Source: Enterobacteria phage XTG1. Taken from it: a DNA stretch of 64,000 nt. Numbering within the stretch: position 1 is the stretch's first letter; the number at the start of each line of letters is the position of its first letter. Below the pieces are notes generated by a model, which did no database searches, was not told where the DNA came from, and saw nothing but the letters and a program-made list of their open reading frames with translations. Position numbers and translations under genes: made by a program. The stretch is from the sequence record KT184316.1; one strand, 5' to 3'. Positions 10,613 through 32,837 of this stretch are shown piece by piece.

Positions 10613-10808
10613 AGCTGTAAGATGTTGTTGTTTGAGAATTTGGACATCTTACAACAACAATATCTCTGCTTATAGCATCACCATGTAACTTGTATACTCT
10701 GCAATCTTGCATCTCTGGTGGGAGGCTGTAAGAAGCATTTTTATCTTCATAAGAAGGGTTGCAGCCAGATAGAAAAATAACACCAAGCGCAATTACTACT
10801 TTCCACAT
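10572..10808 (-). CDS. Small lipoprotein
   Basis: Signal peptide with lipobox (…VIALGVIFLSGCNPS); start placed at MWKV (10808). Confidence 0.5.
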   Translation of the reverse strand: MWKVVIALGVIFLSGCNPSYEDKNASYSLPPEMQDCRVYKLHGDAISRDIVVVRCPNSQTTTSYSYGKNGQSHTTVIE

Positions 10809-11465
10809 AACACTTCTCCTATTACTGTTCACGATGCTCTACTTCTCTGTATGTACGTCGATAATGAATGATAAGTGGTGCTAATTCATTGCTTTTAACA
10901 TTTGAACGTAACAGTTGCCAGTCAAAACCTTTACCAACTCTTCCATATAAATTAAAAAACTTAACTTTGCGTTTCATTTTCGGTATCCCCAATATTCAGA
11001 AGTCAATACTAATGCGTTCACCCTTAAGGACTCCAGTGCGGTCTCTTGCAATCTTGCCGTCAACAATAAGTATATGTGCAGCCCTTAAAGAGTCACCATT
11101 AAAAGCTTTTACGAACTTACTAGGCATCACTACAATGGACATCTCCTGAATCAACTCTGGAGTATAGCAGTTGTCGTGAAGTTGCTGAATAACGTCTGCA
11201 AGTGTCATTTTTGATGTCTCCAATACTCAATGTCAATAAGTTCTTGTGCAATGCTTTTCAGATTACCTTTCAAGAAAACCTTCTCAGAACCAGAAAGAGA
11301 TGAATTGTCAATTAACCTGTTCATTCTCTCAAACAATTTCTGTTTACGGTTCTTGATAGTTTCCTTTGAAGCACCTTTCATCATTGCTGCATGGGTTCTT
11401 CCACGGTGGCTCATAAGCCCTCCTATACAAGATACAGCATAAGGTACTCTTCCCTGAGCACCTTG

Positions 11466-11990
11466 TCAACTTAGTTTTGCAAACTCTCCGTGGAGTTTTA
11501 CAGCAGCTTCACAGTAAGCTTTATGGGCTTCTTCTGGTGTATCAAACATACCAAGATGATAGTTTTTACCTTGTAAACGTATCATTGCTCTAAACCTTTT
11601 GCTTATCTTCTGTACACCTTTTGGCAACCCAGATGGGGACTTTCTTGAACGATTGCAAGAGTTTTGTGAAGCTGTACAAACCCTTAAATTCAAGTACCTA
11701 TTGTCCCAACCGTCCCCATTCTTATGGTCAACCTGTAAGTTTTTATCAGGTAGATAGCCATCCACATATAGTATTGCTAGACGGTTAGCTTGGTAGCCTT
11801 TACCATCAAGCAATAACTGAACAGACTTGTGACCATCTGTGTTTATCCTATAATTTCCTGCCTTTTTGCCTCCAAAACGAGAGTTGAAGTTCTTATTGCC
11901 TCGTGATACCGGCTCTCTAAACTTCCAAGTAAAGACCCCTGTTTCGGGGTCGTAGTCCAATAGCTCCTTAAGACGAATTTCTGTAATCAT
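11466..11990 (-). CDS. HNH homing endonuclease with AP2-like DNA-binding domain
   Basis: HNH motif DHKNGDGWDNRYLNLRVCTASQN; C-terminal KRFRAMIRLQGKNYHLGMFDTPEEAHKAY AP2-like; abuts the 3' end of the DNA polymerase gene. Confidence 0.7.
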   Translation of the reverse strand: MITEIRLKELLDYDPETGVFTWKFREPVSRGNKNFNSRFGGKKAGNYRINTDGHKSVQLLLDGKGYQANRLAILYVDGYLPDKNLQVDHKNGDGWDNRYLNLRVCTASQNSCNRSRKSPSGLPKGVQKISKRFRAMIRLQGKNYHLGMFDTPEEAHKAYCEAAVKLHGEFAKLS

Positions 11991-12000
11991 TTCAATACCA

Positions 12001-14700
12001 TCAATGTACTTCCAACCAGCTCTTACCAACCTTTCCTGTGCCAGTTACAAGCGTCTCACTCTTCAAACCTAAATTCTTAGATGCCTGACCATACATCCAG
12101 TCAGTTATGGCTTTAACTTCTTGAGTCATACTTTCTGGGCATTCCCAACTGTTTTCATCGTGGTATGCCAGCAAAAGCCTAGCACCGATTGCTGGTTTTC
12201 GTCCATTTAATTTTGTCAATCCTTCTTCACATGTTCTTCTACAAGCAAGGTTAATCGCCTCATTTTGAATCTGAGCCTCTGAACCCATGAGCAAATAATT
12301 CAATAGCTTATGTGGAGATTTACACCACAACCAAGCTCCAGCAACCTTTACAAAACCCCCTTTAGAAATTGCAGCAGTCTTACCAAATACCTCTTCAAGT
12401 GCCTTTTTAGTTGCTTTGTAGTCAGCTTCCAAGTCATCTAGCAACTTCTTAATTTTAGGTAAACGAATAAAGTAAGTCTGTTTAGTCAGTGCACCTTCCT
12501 GAGTAGTTGCAGCTTTAATAGTTTTAGCAAACTTCTCATCACCTGCACCAAACAGCAGTGCATAGATACCATTCTTAGCTTTCTTACGACCTTTACTAAT
12601 CTCATGAAGAAGATTCTCATCCTGCGTTGCACGACAAGTTAAGATATCCTGCTCATCGTTCAAGCTAAAGTAGATACTGTTCAGTGTATGTGCATCAGTC
12701 CCTGAATAGACAACGTACAGGTCATTCTCAGAGTCATAGCGAAGGTACTTATCAATCTCTGGGTTGAGGTACTCATCAAAATGTTTGCAGTAATAGCGTC
12801 CATCTTCTTGACGAATGAACTCAATTTCTTCTTTACCTTGCGTCACCGCTTTGGTGAAGTCTTTATCACCCATAAAGTTACAAAGCAGAACTAGCTGGGC
12901 TGAGTTCATATCTACAGAGACAACGTTAGTACCTTCCTCACAAATCCACACTGCCCTCATTGGTTCCCCATAGACAGCAGCACCAGACGGTACGTTTACA
13001 ATACCATATTGTGTCATACGTCCAGTTGAAGTACCAAACACCATTGCACCAGCACTAAGGCGACCATCAGGACGAATCTGGTTCAACCAACCTTTTTCAT
13101 CATCCTTTGAGTTCTCAATAGTTCTGCGTCGGTGCATCAAAGTATAGTACTTAGCAATCTTCTGTCCAAGCTCACCTTCAATCGTATCATAAGATGATTC
13201 AGTAAGTTTTGGTGAAGTACGGATTAAGCAAGGCTCAAGCAAATCTGTGTACTTCTTCACAGACCAGTTATGCTCAATGTACTGAACACCTTCATGTTCA
13301 ACATAACTTAAACCACAACGTTCTACCATCTCCTGCCACTTAGGATGTTTTGTAATCATCTTTTTATTGTCTTTGAAACGACAAACTTTGACAGGGCGAC
13401 CGTCTGAGTCTTTCTTGTAGTTCCAGTCATCTGGAATCCAACCAACTGATTTCAAGTAGTCTTTAACAACTGCTACCTGAGTCATACGAGAAACTTCAAA
13501 CTCAATTGGTGTATATGGTGCATCAATCAAACCCGTGTAGCGACTTGACTCAAGTTCAAAGTGGTTAACAACGTGGCTGTTATAGTACTTCACGGTTTTG
13601 ACTGTTTTTACTGGCTTCCAGTCTTTGCATTTCTTACCAATCTTTGCGTTCAACTCATTGCAAATTGCACGAGCATCCTTCATTGCTACAAAGCCTTCCT
13701 TGTACTCTTCACCAGTTACAGAGTTGGTTGGTGTATAGCAATTTCTCTTTTCAATGTTAAAAATCTTTGTAGTTGGCTTACCAAATGGCTTGATTTCATA
13801 TGTCTGCATCTCACCATTACGTACCTGCTGACGATACTTTGTCTTAGGGTACTTGGTAATTCTTTTCAGTCCATCTGCATGACCAAATGCTTCAACATAC
13901 TCATTCCAAGCCTTTGCAAACTCTTCTCCAGTGACTTTACCTTTGGTCTTAATAGTTGGAGGTAGATGTGGTTCAACCTCTGAAGCAAGCTCATTAGTCA
14001 ACTTGTCAAGTTCCTTTACATGGAACTCCATAAGCTCTTTATCAGCTTTCCAGCCATTGATAGCTTGTTGACTCATCCAGAAAGATGTTTCTTTAGCTCG
14101 CATGTAGGTTTCATAAGTGTCTATGCCACACTTCTTAAGCTTCAGGTATTCATTATCCAGTGCACGTTTAGTTTTGGCGTTAATACGGATATCTTCTACA
14201 ACACGAGTGAAGATTTCTGCATTCCACACACCCCAATGTTCAATCTCTGGTTTACGAACACCAACACGAGCACCCCATGCAGCCAAACCATGAGCACCTT
14301 TATAACCCTTTGGAGTTGGTCTATCCATCCACTGAACACGAGACTGGATAAGAGAATCCTGAAAGAAATTACTCCACGGTTTACACTTTGGATTATCAAA
14401 GTTCCATAAATCAGGTGCAATGTGATTGAAAACCCACCAGTCATAACCGAGACCATTGTGAATGCAAAGACGTTTTGCCTTTAACGCAAACTCAATACCT
14501 TCACGTAAGCCACCCTTAATATACTTGGTATACTTGTGACCGAGGATAGGCTCATCTGTAAAGACCCACACAGGCGGCTCTTCATCGTCAGATTTATAGT
14601 CTGCAAAAGCCATTACGTGCACTTTAGTGAACTCAAGGAGTAAACCATCAGTTTCTGTATCACCAACTAAATGTAAGTTTTTAAAATCTACGTTTTCCAT
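12001..14700 (-). CDS. DNA polymerase, family A (Pol I/T7-like) with 3'-5' exonuclease domain
   Basis: Exo I motif GDTETDGL; Pol A motif A (DMNSAQLVLL), motif B (KAKNGIYALLFGAG), motif C (YHDE); start placed at MENV (14700) with SD gagggag. Confidence 0.9.
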   Translation of the reverse strand: MENVDFKNLHLVGDTETDGLLLEFTKVHVMAFADYKSDDEEPPVWVFTDEPILGHKYTKYIKGGLREGIEFALKAKRLCIHNGLGYDWWVFNHIAPDLWNFDNPKCKPWSNFFQDSLIQSRVQWMDRPTPKGYKGAHGLAAWGARVGVRKPEIEHWGVWNAEIFTRVVEDIRINAKTKRALDNEYLKLKKCGIDTYETYMRAKETSFWMSQQAINGWKADKELMEFHVKELDKLTNELASEVEPHLPPTIKTKGKVTGEEFAKAWNEYVEAFGHADGLKRITKYPKTKYRQQVRNGEMQTYEIKPFGKPTTKIFNIEKRNCYTPTNSVTGEEYKEGFVAMKDARAICNELNAKIGKKCKDWKPVKTVKTVKYYNSHVVNHFELESSRYTGLIDAPYTPIEFEVSRMTQVAVVKDYLKSVGWIPDDWNYKKDSDGRPVKVCRFKDNKKMITKHPKWQEMVERCGLSYVEHEGVQYIEHNWSVKKYTDLLEPCLIRTSPKLTESSYDTIEGELGQKIAKYYTLMHRRRTIENSKDDEKGWLNQIRPDGRLSAGAMVFGTSTGRMTQYGIVNVPSGAAVYGEPMRAVWICEEGTNVVSVDMNSAQLVLLCNFMGDKDFTKAVTQGKEEIEFIRQEDGRYYCKHFDEYLNPEIDKYLRYDSENDLYVVYSGTDAHTLNSIYFSLNDEQDILTCRATQDENLLHEISKGRKKAKNGIYALLFGAGDEKFAKTIKAATTQEGALTKQTYFIRLPKIKKLLDDLEADYKATKKALEEVFGKTAAISKGGFVKVAGAWLWCKSPHKLLNYLLMGSEAQIQNEAINLACRRTCEEGLTKLNGRKPAIGARLLLAYHDENSWECPESMTQEVKAITDWMYGQASKNLGLKSETLVTGTGKVGKSWLEVH

Positions 14701-14760
14701 TTTTACTCCCTCTAAAATCATTAACCTCATACATTACTGCAAAAAATTATAAAAAGCAAG

Positions 14761-20568: not shown

Positions 20569-21609
20569 ATGGAGAAGTACACATTAACAAAACTTCCCGA
20601 TTCAGTTACACATGTTTTTATTGACTCTGACAGTATTGCCTACAAAGGTGCTTGTGTAGTTGAGAAAGCAAAATATAAATATGTCAATAAACTCACAGCA
20701 GAAGAATCTGAGCCATTTGATAATGCGAAAGATGCTGCAAGATGGTTAGCAGACCAGAGAATCCTTGTGGAAGAACTTGGCCTGACATTTGATGAAGATG
20801 AATGGGAAAGACAGACTTGGAAAGAAGCTAAGAGTGAAAAAGAAGCTATCATGGCTACTCAACAGGTGCTTCAGGAATGGCTTAAGGTTGTTGGGAAAGA
20901 AAGAACTTGGGTAGGTTATTTAACAGAGAAAGGTGTACATAAACATAAAGACATTAAAGGTCTTGAGCACCAATATCAAGGTAACCGTAAAGATGCTGTC
21001 ACACCAACACACTTAGTTGCTTGTCGTGAGTATCTTCTGTCAAGACCAGAGTTCAAACTCTTAAAGGGTGGCTTCGAAGCCGATTCAATCGTAATTGCTA
21101 AAGCTGAAAAGATGGGTAAGAAAGCTGCTCTTATGAGTATTGACAAAGACCTTCGACAAGCTGAAGGAACTTATTGTATTGATATGACTTATGAAAAGTC
21201 ACCACTAATTTTTATCGCTGATAATAATGTTGGTGATATCTGGGATTGTCCTATCAAATCAAAACCAAAAGCTGCAAAAACAGTTGGTGTAGGTTTTAAA
21301 TTCTTGTGTTATCAGGCTGTTGCTGGAGATAATGCAGACAACTACTTCGGCCTAAAAGGTGCTGGTAAAGTAGCTGTGATGAATGCTTTAGATGGTAAAG
21401 AGACCTACAAAGAGTGTCTTGACGCTATCTATGAACTCTATGCTAAAAAAGACTCTTATACCTATGTGTCATGGGATGGACAGACTGTTACAAAGACACC
21501 GTTAGAGTTAATGGAACAGCATTTCTGGATAGCATATCAAGAGAGAAATCCAAAAGACAATTTCTCTTTCAAGAAATATAATTGGGAGCCGTGTATGAAT
21601 GAAGATTAA
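20569..21609 (+). CDS. 5'-3' exonuclease / RNase H (FEN-like)
   Basis: Acidic motifs VFIDSDSIAYK, EADSIVIA, LMSIDKDLRQ parallel the T4 RNase H / FEN active-site clusters. Confidence 0.55.
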   Translation: MEKYTLTKLPDSVTHVFIDSDSIAYKGACVVEKAKYKYVNKLTAEESEPFDNAKDAARWLADQRILVEELGLTFDEDEWERQTWKEAKSEKEAIMATQQVLQEWLKVVGKERTWVGYLTEKGVHKHKDIKGLEHQYQGNRKDAVTPTHLVACREYLLSRPEFKLLKGGFEADSIVIAKAEKMGKKAALMSIDKDLRQAEGTYCIDMTYEKSPLIFIADNNVGDIWDCPIKSKPKAAKTVGVGFKFLCYQAVAGDNADNYFGLKGAGKVAVMNALDGKETYKECLDAIYELYAKKDSYTYVSWDGQTVTKTPLELMEQHFWIAYQERNPKDNFSFKKYNWEPCMNED

Positions 21610-22096
21610 AGGATTTGGCAATTGCCCTACCTACGGTCATTGGGTATCTTTATGTGGGGAAGTTGACCCCACTAAACATTTTGGCTTTGTCTATTTAGTA
21701 CACTGTAAGAAGACTGGACAATATTATATCGGAAAGAAACAGCTTAATAGTGTGACTAAAAGAAAAGTTGCTGGCAAGACTCGGAAGAAGGTAGTCACTA
21801 AGGAGAGTGATTGGATGACTTACGAAACCTCTTCTGAGTATATTAAAAAAGATATTGAAAGCTTTGGAAAAGAATCTTTTGATTTTTACATTATTCAAAC
21901 CTACTACACAAAAGGTGGTCTAGTCTATGGTGAAGCAAACCTCCAACATAAATTCGATGTAATGACAAAAAGGATTGACTCTAATCTCAGACTCTTCTAC
22001 AATGCCAATATTGCAGCAATTAAGTTTATTACTAAAGAAACTTATGAAGATGCTGAAAAAAGAATCCATAAGGTAATGAAAGCAAATTGTGCTTGA
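21599..22096 (+). CDS. GIY-YIG-like nuclease domain protein (tentative)
   Basis: GFVYLV…TGQYYIGKK resembles the GIY…YIG motif; overlaps the upstream gene by 11 nt; other GIY-YIG residues not clearly seen. Confidence 0.35.
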   Translation: MKIKGFGNCPTYGHWVSLCGEVDPTKHFGFVYLVHCKKTGQYYIGKKQLNSVTKRKVAGKTRKKVVTKESDWMTYETSSEYIKKDIESFGKESFDFYIIQTYYTKGGLVYGEANLQHKFDVMTKRIDSNLRLFYNANIAAIKFITKETYEDAEKRIHKVMKANCA

Positions 22097-27881: not shown

Positions 27882-30026
27882 ATGAACAAAGTACAGATTA
27901 TTAAAAAGAACGGCTCACTTGAAGAACCTGATATCAAAAAAGTTTTAGCAGCAGTAGCTAAGTCAGCTAACAGGGTTGGATATAAAGAACTTCCACCAGA
28001 TGTTACCCAAGCTCTTGAGTCAGCATTTATGAGGATTCTGGTAAAGTCCACTAAGCAGAATAATTTGCTAATTTCTGTAAATGATATTCACAGTATTGTT
28101 GAGGGTGCTTTGGCAGAAGTCAATCACGAGATTTATGAGTCTTACTCAACATATAGAAATTACCGTAAAGAAGTTGCTCAAAATTGGGATGAGCTTTACC
28201 AGAAGACCAAAGAGACACTCTTCTTAGGTGACCGAGAAAACGCTAATTTTGACAGCAGTTTAATTTCTACAAAAGGTTCAATTATTCGTGGTTATCTGAC
28301 TAAAGAAATCTTTAAACAGTACCACTTAACACCAGAGGAACTTGAAGCCATTGAAAAAGGGTTTATCTATATCCATGATTTAAGAGACCTAATTTTTGGT
28401 GGTATCAACTGTTGCCTGTTTGACATTGGTAAAGTCCTGAAAGGTGGCTTTGAAATGTCTGGCATCGAATATTGTGAACCGAAGTCTGTACTGTCAGCCT
28501 TACAGGTTATTGGTGACGTAGTACTTTCAGCAACTGCACAGCAATTTGGTGGTTTTACTTTAGCAGAGATTGATAAGGTACTTGTACCGTATGCTAAGAA
28601 GTCTCTACGCTATCATGCTGAGAAAGCATCATCTTATGGTATTCCTAAAGAGCATTACCACAATTATGTAACGGAGCAGTTACAAATTGAATTAACTCAA
28701 GGTTTTCAGTCACTTGAAATGAAACTGAACACTGTACCTTGTAGCCGTGGTGATTTCGCATTCACAACTTTAACATTTGGTTTACTTGACTCAGACATGT
28801 CTAATGAAGACAACCGGCTACAATACATGATTGCAAACACCATTCTTGATGTTCGCATGAATGGACAAGGTAAGAGTAAGAAGCCTGTTGTATTCCCTAA
28901 ACTGGTTTATATTCATGACCAGAAGAGACACGATGAGAATATCTGTCAAGGCCAACTGTACAGTAAAGCTATTGAGTGTTGCTCTAAAGCAATGTATCCA
29001 GATTTCTTAAGCGTATCTGGTCATGGTGCTGTAGCAGAGGCTTTTGAGCGTTCTGGCAAGGTAATTTCACCGATGGGTTGCAGAGCTTTCTTATCCCCAT
29101 ATCTTAACGAGAATGGAGAAGAGTTCTACGTTGGTCGTGCTAACATTGGTGCTGTGTCTTTGAACTTACCAATGATTTACCAGTGTTCTAAAGAGAATGG
29201 TTTAGATTTCTGGAAAGAGCTTGACAAGTACCTAGATATGATTCGCAGCTTCCACAAGAAACGCTACGAAATGATTGCTAATATGCCAGCAAGCTCTAAC
29301 CCTCTTGCATTCACACAAGGTGGTCTGTACAAAGGGACCAAGAAACCTACTGACAAGGTTGGTTGGGATATCGTGAAGTCTTTCACAGCTTCTTTTGGGG
29401 TTACTGCGCTTGATGAGTTATCTGTTCTTGCTGAAGGTAAACGGCTGCATGAAGTTGGGAGCTATAGTTTTGCATACGATGTTCTGGCATACATTAACAT
29501 GAAAACTGAAGAGTTTAAAAATGAAGATGGCTTCTTATATGCTGTCTATGGTACTCCAGCAGAATCACTTTGTGGAACTCAGCTAAAACAGTTCAGAGAA
29601 ATGTTTGGTGTTATCAAAGGTGTTTCTGACAAGGAATACTTTACAAACAGTTTCCATATGAATGTTGCAGCAGACATCTCACCATTTGAGAAGCAGGACT
29701 TAGAAGAGCCATTCTTCCATATCTGTAGAGGTGGCAGAATCCAGTATGTCAGGGTAGCTAACCCAGAAAACTTACCAGCACTTAAAAGCTGTATTACCAG
29801 AGGGATGTTGAAAGGTTTCTATCAGGGACTTAACTTTGACTTAGCAATCTGTGAGCATTGTGGTAACAGACCAAAATCAGATGTTGAAGAGTGTGAAGTT
29901 TGTCACTCACATGATATCTCTGTGATTAACAGGGTGTGTGGGTATCTTGGATGGACTAAGATTAAAGGTGAATCCCGAATGAACGATGCAAAAATCGCTG
30001 AGATTCGTGACAGAGTTTCTATGTAA
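27882..30026 (+). CDS. nrdD: Anaerobic ribonucleoside-triphosphate reductase
   Basis: 714 aa; C-terminal Cys cluster CEHCGN…CEVCH followed by glycyl-radical motif RVCGYLG. Confidence 0.93.
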   Translation: MNKVQIIKKNGSLEEPDIKKVLAAVAKSANRVGYKELPPDVTQALESAFMRILVKSTKQNNLLISVNDIHSIVEGALAEVNHEIYESYSTYRNYRKEVAQNWDELYQKTKETLFLGDRENANFDSSLISTKGSIIRGYLTKEIFKQYHLTPEELEAIEKGFIYIHDLRDLIFGGINCCLFDIGKVLKGGFEMSGIEYCEPKSVLSALQVIGDVVLSATAQQFGGFTLAEIDKVLVPYAKKSLRYHAEKASSYGIPKEHYHNYVTEQLQIELTQGFQSLEMKLNTVPCSRGDFAFTTLTFGLLDSDMSNEDNRLQYMIANTILDVRMNGQGKSKKPVVFPKLVYIHDQKRHDENICQGQLYSKAIECCSKAMYPDFLSVSGHGAVAEAFERSGKVISPMGCRAFLSPYLNENGEEFYVGRANIGAVSLNLPMIYQCSKENGLDFWKELDKYLDMIRSFHKKRYEMIANMPASSNPLAFTQGGLYKGTKKPTDKVGWDIVKSFTASFGVTALDELSVLAEGKRLHEVGSYSFAYDVLAYINMKTEEFKNEDGFLYAVYGTPAESLCGTQLKQFREMFGVIKGVSDKEYFTNSFHMNVAADISPFEKQDLEEPFFHICRGGRIQYVRVANPENLPALKSCITRGMLKGFYQGLNFDLAICEHCGNRPKSDVEECEVCHSHDISVINRVCGYLGWTKIKGESRMNDAKIAEIRDRVSM

Positions 30027-30039
30027 AACTTGACATGGT

Positions 30040-30078
30040 GGTGTGAGTCTTGATAGGCTTACATCACCTTTTTTTATT
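30040..30078 (+). terminator. Terminator-like hairpin after nrdD
   Basis: Imperfect hairpin followed by T7. Confidence 0.4.
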
Positions 30079-30181
30079 GGATGTTAGATATGGCAGAGAA
30101 CATCATTGGCCTATTCATAGGTTCTGTCTTACTAGGGTTCTTTTTAGGACTCTCTTATTGTGAATTAAGAGGCAAGTTAAA

Positions 30182-30382
30182 ATGTTTAAAATATCAAAAT
30201 CGTTGATATACATTCTCCACATTCTAATCTTCTTCTTTGGGGTTAGTGTTATGGTATGGGGTTTTTCAGACCCACAGTGGAGTTTATCATATCATGGTCA
30301 GATGGATTTATGGTCATGCTTCAAACCATTTTTAGGGTTAGCCATAGCATTCAGTGTATTGCCAACTAAGGTGAAATTATGA
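30182..30382 (+). CDS. Small membrane protein
   Basis: 66 aa, two hydrophobic helices; lies between nrdD and nrdG. Confidence 0.4.
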   Translation: MFKISKSLIYILHILIFFFGVSVMVWGFSDPQWSLSYHGQMDLWSCFKPFLGLAIAFSVLPTKVKL

Positions 30383-30774
30383 TTAAGTTGAACAAAAAAC
30401 AGTTAGAGTGGATTAAAGATTATGCCTCAGAGTGCGGCTCTTGCGAAAAGAATCACGTAAGATATTCAACATTCCATGCGACCTTCACATTGTACATCAG
30501 CGACAACGTTCTAAGTGATTCCGTAGAAGATGGTGTAGCGTTACCTAATGAATTACTTGACAAATTAGCTGTAGTTACTGGAACGTGGAGTGAAGAAGAT
30601 GGTCACGAACTATCTGACAATGTTGTCTTCTACAGTCTTGAAAATATTATGAATCCAGAGTACATTATGTTAATGACTTGTGCACAAGACTGTGTGCCAT
30701 TACAAAACTTCATTAAAGAGCACTGTGAAGAATTTATTACTAAACAGGTTCCTTGTCAGGTGGTGTTTGAATGA
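30379..30774 (+). CDS. Hypothetical protein
   Basis: 131-aa ORF, 4-nt overlaps on both sides. Confidence 0.4.
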   Translation: MIKLNKKQLEWIKDYASECGSCEKNHVRYSTFHATFTLYISDNVLSDSVEDGVALPNELLDKLAVVTGTWSEEDGHELSDNVVFYSLENIMNPEYIMLMTCAQDCVPLQNFIKEHCEEFITKQVPCQVVFE

Positions 30775-31070
30775 GTAAAACAATTCGAAGAAAAGGTTTA
30801 AAGAACGTTCACGGACTCTATGAGTGGAGAAATGAGGTACGTAACAGAGAAAATGCTTCAGATGTCTACTTCCATTCTGATATGATGTCCAGAAAAGGTG
30901 GCTCTTACGACTTCACAAGCCAGCCTTGTAGAGAGATTAAGAAGGCTACTAAACGTCTTACAAGAACACAAATAAGGCAGCTTTCTAAGACATCCTTCTT
31001 AGATGAAGACTTTGACATTGACAGTAAGTCTCCGAAGAAAGCTGCTAAGAACACTTATATGTATTGGTGA
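30771..31070 (+). CDS. Hypothetical basic protein
   Basis: 99-aa ORF. Confidence 0.4.
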   Translation: MSKTIRRKGLKNVHGLYEWRNEVRNRENASDVYFHSDMMSRKGGSYDFTSQPCREIKKATKRLTRTQIRQLSKTSFLDEDFDIDSKSPKKAAKNTYMYW

Positions 31071-31079
31071 GGTAACTAG

Positions 31080-31565
31080 ATGAATTACATGGAGATTCGA
31101 CCATTTGACACAGCTAATGGTGAAGGGGTTCGTGTAAGCCTCTTCGTAGCTGGTTGTAAGCATCACTGTGAAGGCTGCTTTAACAGGGAGTCTTGGAAGT
31201 TTAATGCTGGTAAAGAGTTTACTTATGCAAACCTCTACGGTATCATTAAGTTAATGGATGATAATGCCATCAGTGGGCTGTCAATACTTGGTGGAGAACC
31301 TCTGGATGATAGAAACATTCAAGAGGTTACCAACATATGCAAACGTATTAAAACCGTTTACCCAGAAAAATCTATCTGGCTCTGGACAGGTTTTCAGTTA
31401 CATGAAAAAATTCACCTTGATGTGATGAAATATGTTGACGTGGTGATTGATGGTAAGTATGATTCATCTAAACCAACAGTTAAACCATATCGTGGTTCTG
31501 ATAACCAAAACCTCTGGAGAAAAGAGTATGGATGGCAAGGCGATTGTCAATGGAGAGCCGAGTAA
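31080..31565 (+). CDS. nrdG: Anaerobic RNR activating protein (radical SAM)
   Basis: CKHHCEGCFN (CxxxCxxC) radical-SAM cluster near N-terminus; size typical of NrdG. Confidence 0.85.
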   Translation: MNYMEIRPFDTANGEGVRVSLFVAGCKHHCEGCFNRESWKFNAGKEFTYANLYGIIKLMDDNAISGLSILGGEPLDDRNIQEVTNICKRIKTVYPEKSIWLWTGFQLHEKIHLDVMKYVDVVIDGKYDSSKPTVKPYRGSDNQNLWRKEYGWQGDCQWRAE

Positions 31566-32321: not shown

Positions 32322-32837
32322 ATGTATCTGTCAAACCTGAAACGTTCGGTTGCAATGTCAGTTCTAAGACTCAGCTTTGATGAGCGTCAAGAGTTTATAG
32401 ACTCCCACAAATATGACCCTTCAAATTCTAATCACATGGTTCTTTGGAATCGTGATAACTTCCGTGAAAGAGCACTTGTCCGTTATTACCCACACTACAC
32501 AATAGATAACCTGTATGAATGGTGTGTTGTGAAGAACACCATTGCAACACTGAACAATCTTTGCAGGTATACGGGTAAGCAAACATTTACATTAGGTCAT
32601 CACAAACCTGTTACAAAAGGTGGTGAACATCACTGTGCAAACTGGTTTATCCAAACTAAAACTGATAACCAGAAGCAAGGAGATAGCCTCCTAAGTATCC
32701 CTAAGATGACCTATGAAGAGCAAGAGAAATATATCAAAAATAATATGCCAGATGTGCTTGACAACAACTATACAGATTTGGCAATATATCTCCTGTTGAA
32801 GTTCGAGACAGTTTATAGGGCAACTTATAATGGCTAG
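32322..32837 (+). CDS. HNH-like nuclease (tentative)
   Basis: LGHHKPVTKGGEHHCANWFIQTKTDNQKQ resembles an HNH/His-Me finger core. Confidence 0.35.
   Translation: MYLSNLKRSVAMSVLRLSFDERQEFIDSHKYDPSNSNHMVLWNRDNFRERALVRYYPHYTIDNLYEWCVVKNTIATLNNLCRYTGKQTFTLGHHKPVTKGGEHHCANWFIQTKTDNQKQGDSLLSIPKMTYEEQEKYIKNNMPDVLDNNYTDLAIYLLLKFETVYRATYNG

Follow-up and report, generated by a model that had tools for sequence, protein, structure and literature searches.

Introduction

Homing endonuclease genes (HEGs) of the HNH-AP2 type have already been documented beside phage DNA polymerase genes, and the phage group examined in the current study was among the first such examples. The genome of Felix O1 carries six HNH HEGs (PMC3185647), and HNH-AP2 endonucleases in 'Bacteriophage Felix 01' are credited to Magnani et al. 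2004 in a citing passage of PMC5318435. HNH-AP2 HEGs were located near DNA polymerase genes in 29% of neighbourhoods examined, and HEGs have been found to be markers of genetic-exchange boundaries (PMC10448857). The best match of known structure to the nuclease described below, I-HmuI from Bacillus phage SPO1 (1U3E), is a nicking enzyme that likewise targets or accompanies a phage DNA polymerase gene (PMC3428280, PMC3017599).

Here we describe an HNH-AP2 gene in a window of 64,000 nucleotides, which is the entire stretch of DNA analysed (Enterobacteria phage XTG1, sequence record KT184316.1). The window derives from the genome of a Felixounavirus (a Felix O1-like myophage), and at the nucleotide level it is 96% identical to LF82P2, another Felixounavirus, and 94.5% identical to phage ekra. 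The HNH-AP2 HEGs of Felix O1 are from the same genus, and they share the HNH_3 plus AP2 architecture of the window gene. In ekra, JK55, Alf5, Mushroom and other phages, this gene carries the annotation 'HNH (homing) endonuclease'. In the literature searched, we found no biochemical characterisation of HNH-AP2 enzymes from the Felix O1 group, and no description of the insertion-site polymorphism, the polymerase 3' haplotype block or the conserved hairpin that are presented below.

The endonuclease gene and its probable start codon

The longest open reading frame (ORF) at the locus spans 11466..12029 on the minus strand (187 amino acids, TTG start at 12029) and is located just 3' of the family A DNA polymerase gene (12001..14730, minus strand, 909 amino acids, Pfam DNA_pol_A, stop codon TGA at 12003-12001). 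The first-pass annotation described this ORF as an HNH endonuclease with an AP2-like tail directly downstream of the polymerase gene, and the ORF, its domains and its position were all confirmed. An overlap between the two genes, which had also been considered, amounts to 29 nt and requires the TTG start, whereas comparison of alleles favours an ATG codon at 11990. Specifically, L017 has a homologous allele with an in-frame stop codon just upstream of the equivalent ATG, which makes this ATG the more probable start.

The most likely extent of the endonuclease gene is thus 11466..11990 (minus strand, 174 amino acids). Since its ATG resides 10 nt past the polymerase stop codon, there is probably no overlap. 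The intervening spacer (11991..12000, minus strand), whose sequence was read directly, contains no obvious Shine-Dalgarno sequence before the ATG. Start codons of other alleles in this slot, meaning the insertion site downstream of the polymerase gene, are positioned from 16 nt before to 13 nt after the polymerase stop codon, and one allele has a TGATG stop/start overlap with the polymerase gene. We infer that translation of the endonuclease is coupled to that of the polymerase.

Domain architecture of the encoded protein

The Pfam model HNH_3 (PF13392) matches residues 80-124 of the 187-residue ORF with 46.9 bits, above the curated cut-off of 24.8 (E 2e-12), and the segment with the His-Me finger residues reads VDHKNGDGWDNRYLNLRVCTASQNSCN. 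The ORF also matches PHROG family phrog_99 ('HNH endonuclease') at 1.7e-59. The Pfam AP2 model yields 25.8 bits with the single sequence (E 1.3e-5), which is below the gathering cut-off of 33.3, and assignment to the AP2/ERF family is instead made with a structure-matching profile built from nine HNH-AP2 alleles. The C-terminal 55 residues of this profile (117-171) match the solved AP2/ERF domains of WRI1 (7wq5, 7e-11), ERF096 (5wx9, 2.5e-6), AtERF1 (2.5e-5; 1gcc/2gcc ~3e-5) and TEM1 (4.4e-5), and residues 48-130 match I-HmuI (1u3e) with an E-value of 2.5e-8.

Residues D88, H89, N97, N101 and N113, which include the catalytic His (DH) and the structural or metal-binding Asn residues, are the same in all nine alleles compared. 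Both this D-H...N...N...N series and the AP2 core are invariant although the alleles have no more than 42-54% identity to one another. From these matches, the protein is predicted to combine a His-Me finger nuclease of the I-HmuI type, whose catalytic residues are all retained, with a DNA-binding domain of the AP2/ERF type. A tblastn search detected no further HNH-AP2 copies within the window.

Polymorphism of the insertion site

The first-pass annotation interpreted the ORF as a selfish-element insertion into a conserved gene. Comparison with relatives supports the mobile nature of the ORF, but places the insertion in the intergenic spacer between the polymerase gene and the next gene, g69 (11205-11414), rather than inside a gene. 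Among 21 loci compared, 13 carry an HNH-AP2 gene (four allele families) and eight carry none. At this same site, some relatives have an empty slot and some have the window allele, and others have HNH-AP2 alleles of at least three further kinds, with 39-54% amino acid identity. The window allele is thus one of at least four allele families in the slot, and Felix O1 carries an HNH gene of a different family there. In GenBank, 24 records match at least 80% of the window allele, and 144 of about 260 Felixounavirus-like records match at least the 3' end of the gene. The record for vB_SflM_004 matches the gene in four fragments only, which suggests decay in that phage.

The spacer between the polymerase gene and the next gene is 61 nt at the empty sites of LTH02, L005, L006, L008 and L011, compared with 586 nt in the window. 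This net gain of 525 nt corresponds to 531 nt in place of 6 nt of spacer, inserted after the polymerase stop codon and before a conserved element that starts with TTGACA and precedes g69. The ORF is very probably a free-standing HNH-AP2 homing endonuclease gene residing in a Felixounavirus genome. An intron or intein was also considered and rejected, given that the polymerase gene is uninterrupted in the window (99% amino acid identity to relatives), the ORF lies past its stop codon, and Rfam yields no match in 10800-12400. The polymerase gene of some relatives is split at motif B.

A divergent block at the 3' end of the polymerase gene

Sequence divergence is found immediately next to the insertion, as would be expected for a free-standing HEG. 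In the last 300 nt of the polymerase gene, nucleotide identity to HEG-less genomes is 71-85%, versus 89-100% (mostly at least 93%) farther upstream. On the downstream side of the insertion site, identity over the first 300 nt is 93-100% in the four cleanest HEG-less genomes. The divergent haplotype block spans 12001..12310 (minus strand), with its left boundary ~237 to 310 nt from the stop codon. About 50% of codons differ from those of HEG-less genomes in this block, versus about 12% upstream. These differences comprise 34-41 synonymous and 10-12 non-synonymous changes per 100 codons within the block, and about 100 synonymous and 4 non-synonymous changes per 800 codons upstream of it.

This block may be a co-conversion tract, in which case the target of the endonuclease would lie within it. 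However, its tie to a particular allele is imperfect. Allele B occurs together with a window-type polymerase 3' end in L014 and L015, and the HEG-less L008 has the polymerase 3' type of the HEG-carrying L003. Because polymerase haplotype and HEG allele are not strictly linked, the block could have been generated by general mosaic recombination rather than by co-conversion due to this enzyme.

Selection on the protein and alternative roles

The window and each same-allele relative that was translated (L001/ekra, L007 and L009) have an intact endonuclease ORF. The window and ekra alleles differ by 29 synonymous and 10 non-synonymous codons, and by this measure the protein is under purifying selection. 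Such selection, together with catalytic residues that are kept across divergent alleles, would also be expected of a domesticated or defensive nuclease that cuts co-infecting competitors, or that serves replication or recombination near the polymerase gene, without copying itself. Some allele occupies the slot in about half of relatives, and there is precedent for the recruitment of HEG-related domains in phage conflicts (PMC10448857). Nevertheless, many close relatives whose flanks are 93-99% identical lack the gene, which is therefore dispensable. Furthermore, the presence of several unrelated alleles in one slot, along with a linked flanking block, is a pattern of homing and allele turnover rather than of a fixed function. 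A domesticated or defensive role in place of homing is unlikely, and exclusion of competitors and homing are in any case not mutually exclusive.

HEGs commonly decay after fixation. The gene might accordingly be an inactive relic of a past invasion, with an ORF that is open by chance and old indels that are shuffled by ordinary recombination, and the fragmented match in vB_SflM_004 is suggestive of such decay in that phage. This explanation is very unlikely for the window gene given its intact ORF in all translated same-allele relatives, the ratio of synonymous to non-synonymous changes (about 3 to 1 per codon count), and the invariance of the catalytic motif and AP2 core across alleles.

A shared 3' module and the adjoining downstream element

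The nucleotides at 11466..11572 (minus strand), which encode the last AP2 helix and the C-terminus (...TPEEAHKAYCEAAVKLHGEFAKLS, followed by the stop codon), form a module that retains 90-97% nucleotide identity across the otherwise divergent alleles of the slot. When measured in windows along the gene, identity to the window allele is 19-60% in mid-gene and 90-93% in the last 60 nt. Most of the 144 GenBank matches noted above cover just the 3'-most 64-107 nt of the gene, and the HNH gene of Felix O1 in this slot has its last 106 nt in common with the window allele (90.7% identity). A paralog at another slot does not carry the module. This shared segment seems to let alleles replace each other.

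Junction comparison at the 21 loci also defines a conserved 55-nt element that extends from the insertion point to g69 (11415..11469, minus strand). This element begins with TTGACA (11469-11464), which encompasses the endonuclease stop codon (TGA, 11468-11466), and ends with the ribosome-binding site of g69. We infer that the TTGACA element serves as a promoter, and this role remains tentative because a consensus scan called no full sigma-70 promoter there.

A conserved hairpin inside the gene

A terminator scan flagged a GC-rich, terminator-like hairpin, GACCCC-GAAACA-GGGGTC, at 11934..11951 (minus strand), which is followed by TTTACTTGG. The hairpin has a predicted ΔG of -12.8 kcal/mol, is present as a single copy in the window, and resides within the coding region at codons D-P-E-T-G-V. 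Every Felixounavirus allele and paralog has identical stems, even though rare codons are needed to encode them, and the arrangement of GACCCC-N6-GGGGTC plus a U-rich tail begins some 40-50 nt inside the ORF. A 141-nt segment surrounding the start codon folds no more stably than shuffled sequences (z 0.77), and only the local hairpin stands out. The possibility that the hairpin is common to the whole HNH-AP2 family was rejected, as about 50 homologues from outside Felixounavirus have the same peptide motif but lack the hairpin. It is likewise absent from T5 hegE, whereas separate versions of it occur in T5 hegJ and in one gene of a Burkholderia phage.

We tentatively propose, as a possibility that is still rather doubtful, that Felixounavirus HNH-AP2 genes hold a nucleic-acid control element in the form of this 6-bp GC hairpin, maintained by nucleotide-level selection against codon bias. 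The element could act as an attenuator, a terminator, or a stabiliser of mRNA 3' ends. If so, it would keep endonuclease expression low and make insertion right behind essential genes (polymerase, exonuclease) tolerable. The hairpin and the shared 3' module of about 100 nt would then constitute a cassette architecture in which nuclease and recognition cores swap within one slot.

Homing endonucleases can also autorepress, as I-TevI does. By this precedent, the window protein might be mainly an AP2-based DNA-binding regulator that, for example, represses itself or its neighbours via the G4/C4 palindrome in its own gene, with nuclease activity being secondary. Although the GACCCC...GGGGTC palindrome is kept inside all Felixounavirus alleles, and AP2 domains prefer GC-rich DNA according to the part of PMC10448857 that cites Magnani 2004, this explanation is highly improbable because the nuclease residues are strictly conserved, the palindrome could equally work as an RNA hairpin, and regulation would add to homing rather than replace it.

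Other nuclease-like ORFs in the window

Three additional regions of the window were proposed in the first-pass annotation to be selfish insertions. The first of these, an ORF at the end of the RNase H/FEN gene (21599..22096, plus strand, 165 amino acids), indeed encodes a GIY-YIG (SegE-like) domain (PF19835 SegE_GIY-YIG, 98.9 bits versus a cut-off of 25, E 3e-28) with visible GFVY...YYIG motifs, and overlaps the exonuclease gene (20569-21609) by 11 nt. However, 214 of the 257 records with a match cover at least 80% of this region. Among the more distant Citrobacter and Shigella phages sampled, such as Michonne, Sf13 and KPS64, the ORF remains within the match, although at megablast sensitivity a small number of the records that diverge most (Sf14, Moogle and EcSzw_1) match over the exonuclease part only. 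By its distribution, this catalytic-domain gene is fixed in the phage group and is not a polymorphic insertion.

The second ORF (32322..32837, plus strand, 171 amino acids) is conserved and has a possible degenerate H-N-N (beta-beta-alpha) motif. It matches a family of unknown function (phrog_3500, 5.6e-92), and weak signals of an HNH protein come from phrog_2214 (2.5e-6) and the IscB HNH region (E 0.013). A Pfam search yielded no HNH match, and fold searches were not significant. Among 5.8 billion proteins, 20 homologues were found, none with a Pfam nuclease domain and 19 with no Pfam match at all. A GH..N..DN motif is invariant. An AF2 model (pLDDT 68) places a beta-beta-alpha unit at residues 89-121. 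The protein is only weakly HNH-like. Its gene is full length in 226 of 231 records and, by this distribution, is not a mobile insertion. PDB sequence searches with this ORF and with the GIY-YIG ORF returned nothing useful.

The third region comprises three small ORFs (30182..31070, plus strand; 66, 131 and 99 amino acids) between nrdD (27882-30026) and nrdG (31080-31565). They match phrog_11929 (membrane protein), phrog_4382 and phrog_1774/DUF5499, and Pfam and PHROG profiles reveal no nuclease signature in any of the three. The ORFs occur in the same order as VpaE1_119-121. The first two are present in 187 records and the third alone varies. Coverage of the stretch containing all three ORFs reaches at least 80% in 88 records. 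Judging from these matches, they are resident accessory genes.

Apart from the variable third ORF, the near-general presence of these regions at the same sites in relatives argues against their proposed origin as selfish insertions. Relatives do carry other HNH genes at two of the loci. One (ekra_48, wV8 gp113) separates the exonuclease gene from the GIY-YIG gene, and the other, which is MobE-like (VpaE1_117), directly follows nrdD. Both are absent from the window, and by comparison of these genomes they are the real variable endonuclease genes of those two loci.

A model for spread of the endonuclease gene

We propose that the endonuclease gene lacks its own promoter and would be expressed at a low level from the polymerase transcript, with translation occurring by termination-reinitiation at the polymerase stop codon. 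In cells that are also infected by a HEG-less relative, the genome of this relative would be nicked or cut by the enzyme in or near the 3' end of the polymerase gene. Recombinational repair from the HEG-carrying genome would then copy the HEG and the flanking polymerase 3' segment, whose silent differences might shield the carrier from self-cleavage. HNH-AP2 alleles may replace each other by recombination between the polymerase 3' end and the shared last ~100 nt.

As a marker of a recombination boundary, the gene has practical consequences. Felixounavirus phylogeny or taxonomy based on the polymerase gene should omit its last ~300 nt, or its last ~1 kb in some relatives. Among therapeutic Felix O1-like phages, variation in the endonucleases carried is to be expected, both in this slot and in a small number of other fixed ones. 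The details of possible further interest are the nucleotide-level conservation of the hairpin and the shared 3' module.

Comparison with known systems

I-HmuI shares the DH..N..N His-Me finger of the window nuclease core. However, it is encoded in a group I intron of the DNA polymerase gene and has another C-terminal DNA-binding region, whereas the window gene is free-standing and intergenic and its product carries an AP2 tail. In genomic arrangement, the window gene resembles the T4-like Seg and MobE systems of 'intronless homing' with co-conversion of flanking markers (PMC2790892), in which an intergenic HEG likewise resides beside an essential DNA-metabolism gene. Presence/absence polymorphism, a divergent tract on the essential-gene side and probable read-through expression are common to both. 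Seg proteins are GIY-YIG enzymes and MobE is an HNH protein without AP2, unlike the HNH protein with AP2 described here, and homing has been demonstrated for the T4 examples, whereas for the window gene it is deduced from comparison of genomes.

The HNH endonucleases of T5 (hegJ/P-TflX, hegE/F-TflV and others) are full-length homologues of the window protein with 38-40% identity and a similar N-terminus (MITQERLKEL..Y.P.TG.F). They belong to a different phage family and have different insertion sites, such as that of hegJ between the replicative helicase and primase genes, and their AP2-like tail is more diverged. The ICP1-like 'IPA-HNH' HEGs (Barth, Dunham and Seed 2023, PMC10448857) also combine an N-terminal HNH with a C-terminal AP2 domain, and they are enriched beside DNA polymerase and ribonucleotide reductase genes and located at the boundaries of recombination blocks. 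Their domains are too diverged for the Pfam HNH_3 model to recognise, in contrast to the window protein, which is a canonical member of this family.

An HNH-AP2 gene directly 3' of the DNA polymerase gene

The region around the main ORF matches 262 phage records, nearly all from Felix O1-like myophages of Escherichia, Salmonella, Shigella and Citrobacter, with Felixounavirus LF82P2 (96%) and Escherichia phage ekra (94.5%) as top matches. Because the matches are to Felix O1-like phages and the equivalent gene pair of ekra is annotated alike ('DNA polymerase' and 'HNH endonuclease'), we assign the window to a Felixounavirus genome. In its longest form (11466..12029, minus strand, 187 aa from a TTG), the ORF lies directly 3' of the family A polymerase gene, pol (12001..14730, minus strand, 909 aa). 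The sign of the GC skew flips near 15 kb (window ~15000), at the switch from minus- to plus-strand genes at the start of pol; the sign changes a second time at about 51-53 kb, where the 52-53 kb interval shows a sharp positive spike.

The domain architecture described in the first-pass annotation, an HNH endonuclease with an AP2 tail, is correct. The ORF matches HNH_3 above the Pfam threshold, AP2 below it (25.8 bits versus 33.3), and a PHROGs family annotated 'HNH endonuclease' (1.7e-59). As an independent check of the AP2 assignment, nine alleles from related phages were aligned and the resulting profile was compared with PDB sequences. The C-terminal ~55 residues of the profile resemble plant AP2/ERF domains (WRI1, 7e-11; ERF096, 2.5e-6; AtERF1, about 3e-5), and residues 48-130 resemble the nicking homing endonuclease I-HmuI (2.5e-8). 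Full-length homologues of the protein were found in 1,902 phage records by tblastn.

The suggested overlap of the ORF with pol requires the TTG start and is unlikely to be real. The alternative start, an ATG at 11990, follows the pol stop codon (TGA, 12003-12001) after 10 nt, and a homologous allele (locus L017) carries an in-frame stop immediately 5' of the equivalent ATG. The ATG is thus most likely the conserved start, yielding a protein of 174 aa.

The insertion site is polymorphic among relatives

Twenty related loci were gathered: two from GenBank records, and 18 from IMG/VR contigs retrieved with the 69-aa protein encoded by the downstream gene, g69. The end of pol and the start of g69 (window 11205-11414) were located in each. 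In five of these, the spacer is only 61 nt long and consists of the pol stop, TTAGTA and a conserved 55-nt element with TTGACA at its start and the g69 ribosome-binding site at its end. The corresponding distance in the window is 586 nt, which places a net insertion of 525 nt exactly between the pol stop and TTGACA, such that the TGA stop codon of the endonuclease gene falls within this hexamer. The window allele is also present at three other loci, nine carry other HNH-AP2 genes in the identical slot, and three hold an unrelated small ORF instead. The other HNH-AP2 genes represent at least three further allele families (39-54% amino acid identity to the window protein), starting from 16 nt before to 13 nt after the pol stop, in one case through a TGATG stop/start overlap. 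Thus, the proposed insertion next to pol is borne out by comparison across related phages, whose sites are empty or hold either the same allele or a different HNH-AP2 allele.

In GenBank, 24 records contain 80% or more of the window allele; the number rises to 144 when a match to its 3' end suffices, and in most of these the match covers only the 3'-most 64-107 nt. On the latter count, about half of the ~260 relatives have an allele of some kind in this slot. Across all pol-slot alleles, the last ~60-100 nt (window 11466-11572; 4840-4949 in L003-L016) are 90-97% identical in nucleotide sequence, beside a remaining protein with 39-54% amino acid identity; in the comparison that gives the gene middle 19-60% nucleotide identity, the 3' module reaches 90-93%. 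This pattern suggests that alleles may be replaced via recombination within the 3' end of the gene. A paralog located at an exonuclease gene does not share this module.

Five loci (L004 and L017-L020) carry an extra ORF of ~70 aa between the pol/endonuclease region and g69. Because its C-terminus resembles that of the 75-aa window ORF at 10996-11223 (…GGKIAKDKTGYLKGE…), we consider it a local paralog or duplication of that ORF.

A divergent block at the 3' end of pol

Compared with genomes lacking the homing endonuclease gene (HEG), the first 2,400 nt of the window pol exhibit 89-100% nucleotide identity (mostly at least 93%), the last 300 nt exhibit 71-85%, and the first 300 nt past the insertion point exhibit 93-100% (the four cleanest HEG-less genomes). 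The last 100 pol codons differ from these genomes by 34-41 synonymous and 10-12 non-synonymous changes, and the preceding 800 codons by about 100 and 4, respectively. Among genomes with the window allele, the block is 97-99% identical. Its divergence matches a putative co-conversion tract or immunity haplotype beside a free-standing HEG, and the one-sided nature of the divergence suggests that the endonuclease target resides in the 3' end of pol. However, linkage of this haplotype with the HEG allele is imperfect: L014 and L015 combine a different HEG allele with a window-type pol end, and the pol end of HEG-less L008 is the type found in HEG-carrying L003. This imperfect linkage indicates that general mosaic recombination also contributes to the block.

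The window and ekra alleles differ by 29 synonymous versus 10 non-synonymous codons, and the D-H...N...N...N motif is invariant in all nine aligned alleles. Together, this excess and this motif indicate purifying selection on the endonuclease, a protein evidently selected to work.

At L003 (3121-3882) and L008, pol is split at motif B (between …KNGIYA and LLFGAG…; approximately window pol codons 725-737, ~12520-12560) by an insert of ~700 nt encoding a 160-aa endonuclease VII-type HNH protein. A group I intron match here is sub-threshold (RF00028, 26 bits, E 2.6e-4). In most 100-nt windows, the last ~1 kb of pol at these two loci shares only 73-88% identity with the window, whose own pol is uninterrupted.

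A conserved hairpin within the endonuclease gene

A perfect hairpin, GACCCC-GAAACA-GGGGTC (dG -12.8 kcal/mol), resides 39 nt past the ATG (window 11934-11951, minus strand), where it encodes D-P-E-T-G-V. It is followed by UUUACUUGG, a U-rich tail. A terminator scan flags the hairpin, and the window has no other such site. All 12 stem bases are retained in 19 of 19 Felixounavirus-type HNH-AP2 genes examined, a set that includes the four pol-slot allele families and the exonuclease-slot paralog; the loop varies. The hairpin observation draws on the window and on loci L003-L018, L026-L030, L053, L058, L060, L061, L089, L095 and L107. The stem requires the rare codons GAC, CCC, GGG and GTC, whose frequency product in the window's long genes is ~1e-4. 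Outside the Felixounavirus group, about 50 homologues share the peptide motif but encode it with other codons that do not form the stem. The hairpin is missing from T5 hegE, and hairpins of different sequence occupy its position in T5 hegJ and in one gene of a Burkholderia phage. The structure is possibly an attenuator or a 3'-end stabiliser for the transcript of the upstream essential gene, or it might serve as an operator for the AP2 domain. Short gene-conversion tracts are another candidate reading.

Other candidate endonuclease loci

The secondary ORFs listed in the first-pass annotation (21599-22096, 32322-32837 and three at 30182-31070) are real, but they are not polymorphic insertions. 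The ORF at 21599-22096 indeed encodes a GIY-YIG domain protein (Pfam SegE_GIY-YIG, 3e-28) and shares 11 nt with the exonuclease gene. However, its region is covered to at least 80% in 214 of 257 records, and matches still span it in more distant Citrobacter/Shigella phages such as Michonne, Sf13 and KPS64, such that it behaves as a fixed gene rather than a polymorphic insertion. At megablast sensitivity, the match is limited to the exonuclease part in a small number of records, which are among the most divergent. Many GenBank relatives, as well as PHROG phrog_447, label the protein 'NAD synthetase', a name that, given the strong SegE_GIY-YIG match, looks like a propagated mis-annotation. The variable element at the junction of the exonuclease and GIY-YIG genes is an HNH-AP2 gene of ~490 nt found in ekra (ekra_48), wV8 (gp113), HY02, VpaE1 and many others; the window junction (21599-21609) is an empty site for this gene.

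Domain and PHROG profile searches with the three ORFs of the nrdD-nrdG interval gave no nuclease signature. The first two are present in 187 records, and the third alone is variable. In VpaE1, the true HEG at this locus is MobE-like, an HNH gene immediately 3' of nrdD, and a homing endonuclease is also annotated in this stretch in warpig, NJ12, JH2 and GEC_vB_NS7. The window is empty of a homing endonuclease gene at 30027-30181, after nrdD.

Relation to known homing endonucleases

The comparative evidence supports a homing interpretation of the main ORF. By analogy with I-HmuI, T4 MobE/Seg and related free-standing HEGs (PMC2790892, PMC3428280, PMC3017599), expression of the gene would depend on pol, through read-through and translational coupling. 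During mixed infection, its product would nick or cleave HEG-less genomes near the 3' end of pol, and repair would then copy the HEG and the adjacent pol segment.

The T5 heg genes are among the full-length tblastn homologues of the window protein (about 39% identity). Six HNH homing endonuclease genes were reported in the Felix O1 genome paper (PMC3185647), and a passage of PMC5318435 cites Magnani et al. 2004 for AP2-bearing HNH endonucleases in 'Bacteriophage Felix 01'. A 2023 survey treats HNH-AP2 HEGs as an established family that marks the boundaries of genetic exchange and has a DNA polymerase gene nearby in 29% of neighbourhoods (PMC10448857). The main element is thus an ordinary example of an already-known kind, in the phage group where this kind was first noticed.
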